Assembly: GCF_041886205.1 (NCBI RefSeq)
Contig: NZ_CP169029.1
DNA: 64,000 bases
Reading direction: 5' to 3' (one strand)
DNA from: Escherichia coli
GTDB taxonomy: Bacteria > Pseudomonadota > Gammaproteobacteria > Enterobacterales > Enterobacteriaceae
Within the stretch, counting starts at the first letter, position 1. Each line of letters begins with the position of its first letter. The translations under genes were made by a program, and so were the position numbers. A model generated the notes under the pieces. That model was not told the DNA's origin, made no database searches, and saw only the letters and a program-made list of their open reading frames with translations. This document shows, in pieces, positions 2,971 through 7,426 of the stretch.

Positions 2971-3283
2971 GCTTACCTTCCCTGAACGAGCTAACATAAA
3001 TGCGCCCTTTCTAGCACAGCGAAAAAATGTAAATACTGATAGCAATATGATTGAAAATTAATAACTTTTCGTTAGGCAGTTTTGGGTGTGAGTTGCAAGA
3101 GGGGAGACTACTGAATAACTCAAGTTTTATAATCGAGGGGAAAATGGTGATGGCGTTCATAGCAAAACGCCCTCAACCATAAAGGTCGAGGGCGCTTAAG
3201 ATGTTAAAAACCCGCTATCCGTTAAAAAACAATGTTCAACTAAGGTCAGTGACATTGCGCTAAAAAAGCGAATTATTAGAATT

Positions 3284-3359
3284 TGGCTCCTCTGACTGGA
3301 CTCGAACCAGTGACATACGGATTAACAGTCCGCCGTTCTACCGACTGAACTACAGAGGA
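3284..3359 (-). tRNA. asnT: tRNA-Asn
   Basis: Reverse complement reads TCCTCTGTAGTTCAGTCGGTAGAACGGCGGACTGTTAATCCGTATGTCACTGGTTCGAGTCCAGTCAGAGGAGCCA, 76 nt, canonical E. coli tRNA-Asn. Confidence 0.95.
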
Positions 3360-3459
3360 ATCGTGTGAACGGGGCGAATATTACTTAGCGGTACCTTGTC
3401 TGTCAACACTAAATTTCATAAGTCATTTCAATTGGTTAATTAATCTGCAAAGTTGTTAA

Positions 3460-4257
3460 TTAATGAACATTCGTCGCCGAAAACGAGTCTGTATCATTAG
3501 CGTGATGCAGTCTCTGCAAAGGATCTTGTTGATAAAATTGGCAGAAACGTTGCCACAATGAAGGGAAACGAGGAGCAAAAAGTTCTGGGGCGCTAAAGAA
3601 ATATTCAGAAAGTACGGCAAAACATTCAGCAGGATCGCTGGCTGCATAAGCATCAATGCTCGCCGCATTCTCGCCAACCAATTCGATTTCTTCCTGAATG
3701 TTGTTCATTGCAGCATGAAGATCGTGTTCCCAGCCAGCAACCTCACGCAACGGAATAAAGGGAACTCCGCTGGCGCGATCGCCGTTACGGGTGTCCAGCT
3801 TATGAGCGACTTCATGAATAATCAGGTTAAAACCAGAAGCATCAAAAGAATCTTGTATATCCAACCAGTTCAAAACGATAGGCCCTTGCTGCCAGCTCTG
3901 ACCTGACTGAACAATACGTTGGTTATGCACCAGACCGATATCGTCTTCCCATTCATCATCGACCACAAATGGCGCAGGATAAATTAAGACTTCATGAAAA
4001 CCATCCAGCCATTCCAGTCCTAACTCCAGAACGGGTAGGCAAAATAGAAGTGCTATCCGGCAGCTTCTTAATGAATCCAGTTCAAAGCCCTGTAAAGGAA
4101 CAAGCCGCTTTTGCTGTAAAAAACGTTCGGCAAGAGTGACTAATTTGCTTTGTTCCTGTTCCGTCAGACACGTTAAAAGGGGGATCGATAGTGCTTCCTG
4201 CCAGGGAAGGGCAGTTTGATGTGCTGATTCTTGTACTTTCCAGGGCCACTTAATCAT
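3460..4257 (-). CDS. mtfA: Mlc titration factor A (265 aa)
   Basis: ORF 3460-4296; internal start [11 protein letters not shown] matches MtfA N-terminus; ATG confirmed at 4255-4257. Confidence 0.92.
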
Positions 4258-4350
4258 CGTTTTGCTCGCAAACTCGTCACTTGAACAAAATTGCACGGAC
4301 AGGGACTGTTAAAATGCCAAATTTCCTGGCATCATGGCAACCATCTGAAC

Positions 4351-4440
4351 GGAGAGATGCCGGAGCGGCTGAACGGACCGGTCTCGAAAACCGGAGTAGG
4401 GGCAACTCTACCGGGGGTTCAAATCCCCCTCTCTCCGCCA
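4351..4440 (+). tRNA. serU: tRNA-Ser
   Basis: GGAGAGATGCCGGAGCGGCTGAACGGACCGGTCTCGAAAACCGGAGTAGGGGCAACTCTACCGGGGGTTCAAATCCCCCTCTCTCCGCCA, long variable arm, 3' CCA. Confidence 0.95.
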
Positions 4441-5009
4441 CTTTATCAATGACTTATCTCCCGACTTCCCGCCTTGCTTTTCCTAAACAGAACAATCGTA
4501 GAATATTCTTGAAGGGTTAGATCGTCACTGTTTTCTGTTCGATACTGTGACATTCAGCACTTGATTCGCTATGGATCTGACAGGAAGCTTTCGAGCGAAA
4601 ATGTGCAGTTATTCAGTCGTTTTCTTATCGCTCACCATTATTCTTTTAGACATTCATCCTATGAAACTGCCGCAAAGTTGGTGGTGGGAACTGAAGTTGC
4701 GTAGAGAAGGGTTCAATAATTGAGTCAAAAAAGGAACGCGGCCGTCAGATTAAAGCCGCGGGACAAAGTCCATAATTTCCAAGAGTTGTTGAATTTCCCA
4801 GCTTTTTTGAAAGCCTTTGTATCACACTAACAAGTAAAAAAGGTTTAAATACCAAAATTAACCTGTATTTTTGATAAGTCTTACCATTGTACGATTTACA
4901 CAGTTTCTGCTCCTCCTTGTTGATAGTGGAAAGGGTGCATTGTGCACTTGCGTAAACATTTATGACGCGTTGATGTCCATGGTTCACATTTCCTTGTCAG
5001 GGGATCGAC

Positions 5010-5540
5010 TTATTTGCGGCGAGGCATCATTCGTAACAGAGTATTATCTTTCTGAATGTAGTGATGAAAGAGTGCTGCGCCAGCGTGAGCTGCGATTAAA
5101 AAGTAACCTATATTTGCCCAGGTTTCGTGAATATTTTTTATCAGTGCTTTAATTTCGCTGTTTGGGGTAACAAAGGGAGACACATTGAAACCAAGGAAAC
5201 TCCACGATTTTCCACTGTAAGCCATCAAAGCAATCCCCAGCAGAGGAAGTGCAAGGAAGGTTATATAAAGCATGATGTGCATTAGCGAAGCCGCTTTCAT
5301 TTGCCAGGCAGGTGGCGGTGGCACAATAGAAGGATCACTATAACGGTGTTTTATAATCAGGCGTGAAAACATTAACACCCAAACGAATATACCCGCATTG
5401 TAATGTGTTTCTCGCATCAGCAGATAAGTACTACTACCTTTAGGAAACCAGCCACGGAGTTCCATCGCGGCATAGGTTATTGCAACGAAAAGCAGCGTTA
5501 TCCAATGTAAATAAATTTGAGTTTTTGAGAATCGGTTCAT
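5010..5540 (-). CDS. yodB: Cytochrome b561 homolog, inner membrane (176 aa)
   Basis: ORF 5010-5570; internal start MNRFSKTQIYLHWITLLFV matches YodB; hydrophobic, His-rich helices. Confidence 0.88.
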   Translation of the reverse strand: MNRFSKTQIYLHWITLLFVAITYAAMELRGWFPKGSSTYLLMRETHYNAGIFVWVLMFSRLIIKHRYSDPSIVPPPPAWQMKAASLMHIMLYITFLALPLLGIALMAYSGKSWSFLGFNVSPFVTPNSEIKALIKNIHETWANIGYFLIAAHAGAALFHHYIQKDNTLLRMMPRRK

Positions 5541-5883
5541 TTTTGTAGCTCCTGTAATTTTTACAGTCAAGCTATCCCACGAACCTTAAAAATTCCTTAT
5601 ACAGATGTGGTTTTAAGAATTTGTTATTTAAAAAATTGATAGTGCACATTGTAACCAGCCAATATAAGCAATGGCGTGAGCACAGGTATCTTTCTCTGTT
5701 GGCCGTATTGTGTATGGAATCCGTTATTGGTTAACTCAATGCGGGTTAGCTTATTTAATATACAGACACGTCATAGTGATGAGCGTGTCTGTAGCTAGCT
5801 TGCGTTCAGTGGCGTTTGTGGATGGACCAGTGGTAGTTATGATGACTTACTAAAGCGGCATCGAGGCGTTATCATGAGAATAC

Positions 5884-6534
5884 TCAATGAGACATCATTT
5901 CCTCGACCACTTCTTCGCTACTCAACTGATATGGATAAAACGTTGGCCAGTTTTCCATTTCATTTAATAAAGATTGCTGTGAATCATTACCCATAAAAAT
6001 GTGAAAATGAGATGATTTTCGTGGTGCAATTATATGATCGCTAAATTGTATATATTTAGGGGCTTTGCTTTTAGGATCTTTACATTCGAATAAGTAACGA
6101 ACGCCTTTCTTACCTGATTTGTAAGTGAGTATTTTGTATCCATCGTAATCATATTTACAGGATGTTGTTTCATTATTTCTATGGAATTCAACAATGCCGT
6201 CCTCAATGCCAATCATCTCGATATCTGTCGCATAACCTTTGTGATAATAATCTTTAATTTCAGCAAATGTTTTGGTTTTATCTGCATCCGCTTTCTTCTG
6301 AAAGACGGGGCCAAGTTTGCCACTTTGCAGTAAAGGATAAACGGATTGCCAGACTCCATCCCAGTCACTGAGCGTTCGGTTTTGTACATTGGCATCATCA
6401 AAAACACCATTAGCAGCTTTTTGTTCGACCTCTGTTAAGGGTTTGCCGTGTGAGTGATGACCATGCGAAAAGGCAGGAGCGCTAACAATAAAGACACCTA
6501 AAGCAACAGCCAGTTTGTGAAGACGAATCGCCAA
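5884..6534 (-). CDS. zinT: Periplasmic zinc/cadmium-binding protein ZinT (216 aa from probable TTG start)
   Basis: ORF 5884-6555; sequence (L)[29 protein letters not shown]... matches ZinT. GGAGG lies 8 nt upstream of TTG at 6534; the in-frame ATG at 6555 has no Shine-Dalgarno. Confidence 0.88.
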
Positions 6535-6570
6535 AACAGTTTCCTCCAGAGTCATTGTATATGATGTGTA

Positions 6571-6587
6571 ATGTTATATTGTAACAT
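6571..6587. promoter_or_regulatory. Zur-box-like palindrome in zinT promoter
   Basis: ATGTTATATTGTAACAT with perfect ATGTTA/TAACAT arms, just upstream of zinT; zinT is a known Zur-regulon member. Confidence 0.5.
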
Positions 6588-6720
6588 ATGACAAAATGCA
6601 ACAACTCTTAGGAGATGAGAGCATAGTTTTCTCAGGTGTATTTATCTATCTTATTGAAATAAAATGAATTATGTTGATAATTTGAGGTTGATGACAAACG
6701 AAACATAACCTGATGTGATC

Positions 6721-6760
6721 TGCGCAGGCCGGACAGGGCGCTCGCGCCGCATCCGGCAGG
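6721..6760. repeat. REP-like extragenic palindrome
   Basis: GCCGGACAGGGCGCTCGCGCCGCATCCGGCAGG, GC-rich imperfect palindrome typical of REP, between zinT and msrQ. Confidence 0.5.
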
Positions 6761-6790
6761 GATAACGCGTACTTTGTCGGCAATATGAAG

Positions 6791-7426
6791 TTATACAGAT
6801 AATTTGTTGTGAACCTGCTTGCGTAACCGGTTAAAAAGGGAACGCAACTTCTTATACCGTAAGGCTAAAAGCAGTACAGCCAGCCCAGCGTAGATGAGCG
6901 GCTGCGGTGAAATAATCTTCACTGACCACAGATAATGTATTGGGGCCAGGATCGCGACAAGATAGACGAAATTATGCAACTGTTGCCAGTGCTTGCCGAG
7001 TTTTCGCTGCATCGCCTGGGTTGAAGTAAACGCTAAAGCAAGCAAAATAACCCAGCTGATAATTCCTAACGTTAAATAAGGCCGGGTAATTAACTCCTTG
7101 CCTAATAACGCCAGATTATTCACGCCCAGCTCCAGCAATGCGTAACTGGTTAAATGCAGTGTCGCCCAGGCAAAGCACCATAAGCCTAACAGGCGGCGAG
7201 TGCGTATCAATAACGGCTGTTTTGCGTAGCGTGCCAGAGGTGTGATTAACAAGGTCGCCAGCAAAAATTTCAGTGCAGTGCGACCGGTAAAATGCTGAAT
7301 ATCTTTCACCGGATCGGCACCCAGTCCACCGTGATTGATCGCCCAGACCAGCCAGAGAAACGGCAACAATCCGGCAAGATGCAGGCAAACTTTCAGCCAT
7401 GTCACCTGTTTTGCTGTCAGACGCAT
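6791..7426 (-). CDS. msrQ: Methionine sulfoxide reductase heme-binding membrane subunit MsrQ (211 aa)
   Basis: Full-length match [26 protein letters not shown]...; directly downstream of msrP. Confidence 0.93.

Follow-up and report, generated by a model that had tools for sequence, protein, structure and literature searches.

Introduction

Does the DNA between the tRNA gene serU and the convergent gene yodB of this Escherichia coli chromosome represent an empty attachment site, the remnant of a mobile element, or core sequence of the species? The initial annotation of the window, by which we mean the whole 64-kb stretch of DNA that was analysed, had pointed to a 569-bp non-coding stretch at the 3' flank of serU and regarded it as an unoccupied site or a short remnant rather than an island. 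We examined the genes, the conservation, the attachment-site context and the transcription termination of this stretch.

Results

Genes around and within the interval

An intact serU, tRNA-Ser(CGA), is found by ARAGORN at 4351-4440 on the plus strand, with 57 bits against the Rfam tRNA model and no difference from the serU sequence of K-12. The same program places a tRNA-Asn gene, asnT, at 3284-3359 on the minus strand. The other neighbours and the short reading frames, taken from the ORF list and, for yodB, also from the K-12 annotation, are as follows.

3460-4257, minus strand: mtfA
5010-5540, minus strand: yodB, a cytochrome b561 homologue, the convergent neighbour
4745-4987, minus strand: 80-aa ORF
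4871-5152, plus strand: 93-aa ORF
4571-4723, plus strand: 50-aa ORF

The extent given by the initial annotation is exact, since 4441-5009 is precisely what lies between the end of serU and the yodB stop at 5010 on the minus strand. The two overlapping frames of 80-93 aa, which it had held to be of low plausibility, are present at 4745-4987 and 4871-5152, and neither is credible. Both are split by the boundary at 4887/4888, where the sequence is replaced in yodB-less strains (~40% of genomes). The existence of the ORFs and a hydrophobic stretch in the 50-aa ORF would favour a real small protein. However, all of the nine differences between the 50-aa ORF and the ST131 allele (9/9) are non-synonymous, and the frame has a premature stop in phage-borne copies. 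In addition, the Pfam search with six-frame translations of the interval gave no meaningful family, the sole match being a GRF zinc finger at chance level (E=0.22), and RefSeq has no annotation under the interval in any of the listed genomes, K-12 included. Neither purifying selection nor family membership is seen for the ORFs of the interval, and it is almost certain that none of the three (50, 80 or 93 aa) is a real small protein. The description of the interval as non-coding therefore stands in the sense that it has no credible gene, and it needs a refinement: transcription enters the interval from either side, and each of the two units has its terminator inside it.

Conservation in K-12 and across E. 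coli

The spacer of K-12 MG1655 also spans 569 bp and is unannotated (NC_000913.3 2042899-2043467), and the gene order around it, msrPQ, zinT, yodB, serU, mtfA, asnT, yeeJ, is the same. K-12 coordinates are converted as 2047908 minus the window coordinate. The comparison with the serU flank of K-12 had been proposed in the initial annotation as a check, with the provision that an interval shared across E. coli including K-12 would be an ordinary conserved spacer. The two spacers are colinear and near-identical, with 3 changes in 569 bp (substitutions at 4798, 4825 and 4998).

The whole spacer, used as a query, matches 5,421 of the 5,426 complete E. coli genomes, 3,064 of them over its full length. 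Spacer positions 1-447 are even more widespread, with at least 80% coverage in 5,342 of the 5,426 genomes and some match in 5,420; about 2,300 genomes have positions 1-447 only. Near-identical to K-12 and common across E. coli, the stretch 4441-5009 is therefore an ordinary conserved spacer by the measure that the initial annotation itself had set.

serU as an attachment site

The part of serU that is relevant to integration, as delimited by att comparison, is the following.

4379-4440, plus strand: 62-nt 3' segment of the tRNA, the attachment core of lambdoid serU prophages, in single copy here

In the window, the intact tRNA is directly joined to backbone that is colinear with the reference strains. 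The last 28 nt of serU have only one copy in the 64 kb with up to 3 mismatches allowed, and 4300-5100 contains no relevant direct repeats; the duplicated tRNA 3' segment (att repeat) that the initial annotation had advised looking for is thus found neither in the interval nor in the window. Its statement that the interval has no integrase is borne out by the six-frame Pfam search and by tblastn with the integrase of the ST131 serU prophage, which was empty even at E=100. Sensitive blastn against the attL-int region of ST131 also revealed no trace of a decayed gene in the spacer. Altogether, the interval shows no bounding att repeat, no mobile-element gene fragments and no phage-derived homology. 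The earlier wording is accordingly right in that the site is unoccupied and that there is no island; its other option, a short remnant, is not upheld, as neither an att repeat nor an integrase trace is present.

Elsewhere in the species the same junction is often occupied. A 281-bp probe, which runs from the upstream region through the tRNA to spacer position 140, is continuous in 3,855 of 5,422 E. coli genomes and interrupted in ~29%. The interruptions occur at two places, at tRNA position ~29-30 (window 4379), with a break at probe position 80-82 that recurs in many genomes, or ~14 nt before the tRNA end. At attL of ST131, serU is followed only 27 bp on by a frameshifted tyrosine integrase. 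An A-U pair in the variable arm of this tRNA is changed to G-C by compensatory substitutions, which marks its 3' part as phage-derived; attR, ~42 kb from attL, has the native 62 nt (L002 2939-3000) and then the spacer. Nissle 1917 and 25DN have an island at serU whose integrase adjoins the ~14-nt tRNA end and the spacer. The partial phage record SerU-LTIIb has an annotated 62-nt pseudo-tRNA, followed by this spacer and yodB, and an Stx1d prophage has been located between serU and yodB (PMC9729726). Other strains thus carry integrase-bearing elements and a duplicated tRNA 3' segment at the very junction that is empty here.

These arrangements indicate that lambdoid prophages recombine inside the 62-nt 3' segment of serU (4379-4440), and that a second class of islands uses no more than the final ~14 nt. 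The spacer of lysogens is located directly 3' of the duplicated tRNA 3' end, as a bystander flank.

The asnT site (3284-3359) is also empty in the window, with yeeJ directly adjoining as in K-12. ST131 and EC187792 have an integrase at asnT, which in ST131 carries the yersiniabactin island.

A phage-borne copy of the serU-proximal spacer

Part of the spacer is also found in phages, together with the 3' part of the tRNA, as defined by phage alignment.

4379-4718, plus strand: 340-bp host segment (62 nt of serU and 278 bp of spacer), present also as a passenger copy in lambda-like phages and prophages

The phages ev099, mEp332 and PhiR70_1 match spacer positions 1-278 with 96% identity. The homology extends from window 4379 through the end of the tRNA to 4718, and it is preceded by the same phage arm as attR of ST131. 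With this block directly after a serU 3' fragment in three phages, the spacer or its first ~280 bp might be read as a decayed prophage or island remnant at serU, i.e. an attL arm left after deletion. The same reading would be in line with the confinement of the spacer to E. coli among the sampled species, and with the integrase-linked sequence and repeated TTGGTATA-like motifs that follow serU in many other Enterobacteriaceae.

The organization of the phages themselves argues against such a remnant. In ev099, the copy is located at L005 2939-3278, whereas a lambda-type integrase lies 2.1 kb further on, adjacent to an exact copy of the lambda attP core (L005 5324-5342); the serU block and the integrase are separated by an AraC-family regulator and IS fragments. 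Since ev099 has its own lambda integrase and attP 2 kb away, the serU block is a passenger and not the attachment site of ev099. In strain 214-4, the block (L075 ~4800-5150) is at the end of a prophage that is integrated at the lambda site beside ybhB-bioA. On these two grounds, the idea that the phage homology makes the spacer a phage arm was rejected. Furthermore, the genuine serU prophage of ST131, with int 27 bp after the tRNA, does not contain the 278-bp block, the variants of the phage copy are those of one natural type of chromosomal allele (LH50c-like), and the chromosomal sequence is unbroken across spacer position 278 in all E. coli. Together with the lack of an att repeat and of integrase similarity in the interval, these observations make a remnant very improbable. 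The data also suggest that the spacer is ancestral throughout E. coli.

In the simplest reading, the serU block of the lambda-like phages is a passenger in the b region that has preserved a fossil attR junction, and the transfer was from host to phage: a serU prophage once excised together with the attR junction and 278 bp of flanking chromosome, and lambda-like phages now carry this piece. Of 5,426 E. coli genomes, 537 (~10%) contain the phage-type junction, O157:H7 among them.

Termination on the serU strand

On the plus strand, base composition, folding and published K-12 data point to the following feature.

4441-4683, plus strand: serU 3' trailer and Rho-dependent termination zone

The segment 4441-4500 contains 19 C and 6 G residues (C/G = 3.2), and 4441-4560 folds worse than shuffled sequence (z = +2.0). 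For K-12, Adams et al. (2021) compared DirectRNA-seq reads with and without bicyclomycin in 800-nt windows, so that the Rho positions are only approximate (PMC7815308). Their data contain a very strong Rho termination region, among the strongest tabulated, at 2043225 on the minus strand of K-12, which corresponds to window 4683 (PMC7815308, supplementary file 2). The reads upstream and downstream of this position are 7705/24 without bicyclomycin and 9053/1099 with it, giving a Rho score of 38.97 (p=2e-241; PMC7815308).

The window sequence 4441-4683 is identical to that of K-12. Thus the bicyclomycin-sensitive read loss of the published K-12 data is accompanied by a C-rich, G-poor and unstructured upstream RNA, as is the case for a Rho-dependent terminator, and we infer that the C-rich 4441-4500 is a candidate rut site. 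Transcripts reading through serU would enter this unstructured trailer and would be stopped by Rho ~240 nt downstream.

Termination on the yodB strand

Two features are proposed on the minus strand, the first from folding and Term-seq and the second from the RIL-seq span and the terminator.

4727-4760, minus strand: intrinsic terminator, consisting of a hairpin at 4737-4760 and then UUCCUUUUUU at 4727-4736
4727-5009, minus strand: probable yodB 3'UTR of ~283 nt, Hfq-associated in K-12

The hairpin has 6 G-C pairs and 1 G-U pair around a 10-nt loop (-14.9 kcal/mol, z -2.26), and the whole element 4727-4760 is invariant in 8 of 8 chromosomal alleles compared. The consensus terminator scan missed this real terminator, a 10-nt loop being beyond its loop-size limit. 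An 'orphan' 3' end from Term-seq is listed at K-12 2043181 on the plus strand, which is the final U of the U6 tract and corresponds to window 4727 (PMC7815308, supplementary file 1). Two of the 3 condition sheets contain it, and in the first sheet it is not found next to serU (PMC7815308). The predicted hairpin and the published 3' end therefore agree to the nucleotide: a GC-rich hairpin is directly adjoined by a U-tract, and the RNA 3' end is inside this tract.

The RNA that ends here is also seen among Hfq ligands. A RIL-seq node named yodB.serU.IGR covers K-12 2042810-2043160 on the plus strand (window 5098-4748) and includes 85 chimeric fragments with ArcZ (PMC10954441, supplementary file 4). 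It is also present in the RIL-seq data of Melamed 2016 as re-analysed by Bar et al. (PMC8175672). The fragments are from the yodB strand and extend from inside yodB into the spacer. Most simply, then, the RNA ending at 4727 is a yodB 3'UTR of ~283 nt, its continuity with yodB being inferred; it could instead start at a promoter of its own. The supplements of SMRT-Cappable-seq have no transcription start entry for this region.

The sequence across both terminators is that of K-12, and the K-12 transcript data therefore carry over to the window strain. For the window, three points are thus predicted from K-12 data on almost identical sequence, namely Rho dependence after serU, the RNA end at 4727 and association with Hfq. 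Transcripts from the yodB side would end at the GC hairpin and U6 at 4727, and the two converging units would stop ~44 bp apart, with no collision.

Pattern of variation and the yodB cassette

Spacer positions 1-447 differ from ST131 at 19 places (4.25%), compared with 1.75% overall for mtfA, in which 10 of the 14 changes are synonymous. The differences in the spacer are distributed unevenly.

4441-4574: 1 difference
4575-4726: 10 differences
4727-4824: 0 differences
4825-4887: 8 differences

The same pattern is seen among 8 chromosomal alleles. The two quiet blocks are the serU trailer and the ~100 nt upstream of the minus-strand terminator; this fits a spacer of mostly weakly constrained non-coding DNA with two conserved blocks.

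To the right of position 447, comparison with ST131 and the other alleles defines a separate part of the spacer.

4888-5009, no strand assigned: right-hand 122 bp of the spacer, part of the yodB cassette

The cassette consists of 996 bp (4888-5883), namely these 122 bp, yodB and the yodB-zinT spacer, and B2-type strains have 222 bp of unrelated sequence in its place. ST131 is homologous to the window up to 4887 and again from the zinT stop (5884) onwards, the replacement in ST131 being L002 3448-3669. Cassette-replaced alleles are those of LH50c, ST131, 25DN and Nissle 1917.

The 222-bp replacement has a clean hairpin and T-run after zinT, and the zinT-proximal hairpin of the window (~5765-5800) has no T-run. 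The missing T-run hints at possible co-transcription of zinT and yodB in yodB-positive strains. Between zinT and msrQ, 6727-6792 on the plus strand resembles the Rfam family naRNA4 (a nucleoid-associated RNA derived from REP sequences) only weakly, its 30.5 bits being below the gathering score of 59.5, and probably represents no more than a REP element.

The conserved block next to the minus-strand terminator

The second of the two quiet blocks was delimited by allele comparison.

4727-4824, minus strand: 98-bp block, highly conserved, next to the minus-strand terminator on its upstream side and kept in yodB-less strains

It has only two singleton changes across 8 alleles. Such a block of ~100 nt, from 4727 to ~4824, could be a distinct Hfq-binding sRNA with targets, either processed from the yodB 3'UTR or transcribed from its own promoter. 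Its near-invariance across phylogroups between two variable flanks, its retention without yodB, and the RNA 3' end at a canonical hairpin and U6 are consistent with this. So is a possible extended -10 element, TGTTAGTGT, at 4824-4832 on the minus strand, which reads TGTTAGTAT in most alleles; however, no promoter upstream of the block on this strand passed the consensus scan. In the exponential and stationary RIL-seq sets, the node, whose U-tract is 6 nt long, accounts for 39 and 33 chimeric fragments, and its SIC scores imply that it is always the second RNA of the chimera, but the sRNA scores of the published classifier are 0.010 and 0.046 with a cut-off of 0.1, and there are only 1-2 partners (PMC8175672). 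Likewise, the 85 chimeric fragments shared with ArcZ speak for a regulatory RNA, whereas in these chimeras the node is the first RNA, the position of a target, and is only weakly enriched (odds ratio 2.1, p=0.0017; PMC10954441).

A crude duplex search against ArcZ performed no better than shuffled sequence or genomic background. The block belongs to no Rfam family: the Rfam scan of 3000-7000, with E up to 1, returned two tRNAs and matches at chance level overlapping serU. Moreover, the RNA is unannotated in K-12 despite intensive curation of sRNAs. We regard it as unlikely, on this balance, that the block is an uncharacterised Hfq-binding regulatory RNA, with ArcZ and one or two mRNAs as possible partners.

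serU flanks outside E. coli

An exact match to the serU tRNA was found at 59 loci among 100,044 species genomes, with E. albertii and E. fergusonii not among the matches. At all of these loci mtfA adjoins serU. No homologue of the spacer was detected 3' of serU in the sampled cryptic Escherichia lineages or in any other genus covered, the only exceptions being two E. coli-contaminated metagenome bins. As judged from these sequences, the spacer is specific to E. coli among the species sampled. Many of the other loci have integrase-linked sequence after serU. In three cryptic Escherichia loci (L010, L023 and L060), MtfA is ~91-92% identical, and serU is directly followed by shiA-amn-yeeO, not yodB-zinT. 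With mtfA-serU in a different arrangement in these lineages, serU is therefore a synteny breakpoint within the genus.

Several of the flanks have features of their own. Escherichia sp. MOD1-EC7003 (L066) and Klebsiella michiganensis (L042) have nearly the same sequence directly after serU, over the first ~160 nt and beyond, which looks like a common island at serU. ORFs were listed for L066 only; in MOD1-EC7003, the ORFs after this sequence are uncharacterised, and the first 6 kb contain no integrase. In Salmonella and Citrobacter (L045, L046, L049 and L056), TTGGTATA is repeated 2-3 times ~45-80 nt after serU, overlapping the 3' end of the integrase. At attL of the ST131 prophage (L007 19066-19100), it is CTTGGAATATTTTC that is repeated 2-3 times just after the tRNA, again overlapping the integrase 3' end. 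Both sets of repeats look like arm-type binding sites of the integrase. A Salmonella diarizonae locus has the repeats and no ORF of at least 90 aa in the next 2.3 kb, and may be a true attL remnant.

Discussion

Our analysis indicates that 4441-5009 is very probably native core spacer of E. coli, which combines the flank of an unoccupied attachment site with a region of convergent terminators and includes no remnant of a mobile element. The spacer is conserved core sequence that is already known, and both of its terminators are visible in published genome-wide datasets though unannotated. The interval should accordingly be filed as core backbone next to an empty serU attachment site, with no scar of a mobile element.

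This assignment has practical consequences. The second, phage-borne copy in ~10% of genomes can mislead the calling of att sites and of prophage boundaries at serU, and it also provides 340 bp of homology for recombination. In addition, the yodB 3'UTR with the block at its terminator is a cheap candidate for cataloguing of 3'UTR-derived Hfq RNAs.

The locus resembles several known systems, each with a distinct departure. Among tRNA genes that serve as attB sites, serU itself is known from Stx1d and LT-IIb prophages and from islands, and the window shares with these cases the intact tRNA and a spacer that follows the attR copy in lysogens. However, the site in the window is empty and holds nothing mobile, and the spacer is a flank that forms no part of any element.

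The phage-borne copy is reminiscent of the lambda bio and gal specialised transducing phages in that a phage arm, the 3' part of the tRNA and host flank, i.e. an attR junction with the adjacent chromosome, are carried together. It differs from them in the size of the captured spacer, which is only 278 bp, and in being a b-region passenger under a different (lambda) integrase and site that has spread to ~10% of genomes.

With respect to transcription, the Rho-dependent terminator after tyrT is an example for a tRNA gene. Like regions between convergent genes that combine a Rho-dependent with an intrinsic terminator, the interval has a C-rich trailer and a bicyclomycin-sensitive drop after serU, opposed by a hairpin and U-tract on the other strand; here, however, the rut site of serU and the release points are only putative, and the yodB 3'UTR of ~283 nt is unusually long. 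This 3'UTR is comparable to the Hfq-bound 3'UTR RNAs CpxQ, SdhX and GlnZ in its terminator hairpin with U6, its presence in Hfq RIL-seq data and its conserved 3' block. It departs from them in that its partners are few and its classifier scores low, and a discrete RNA species, a seed and a target are only putative for the yodB 3'UTR RNA.
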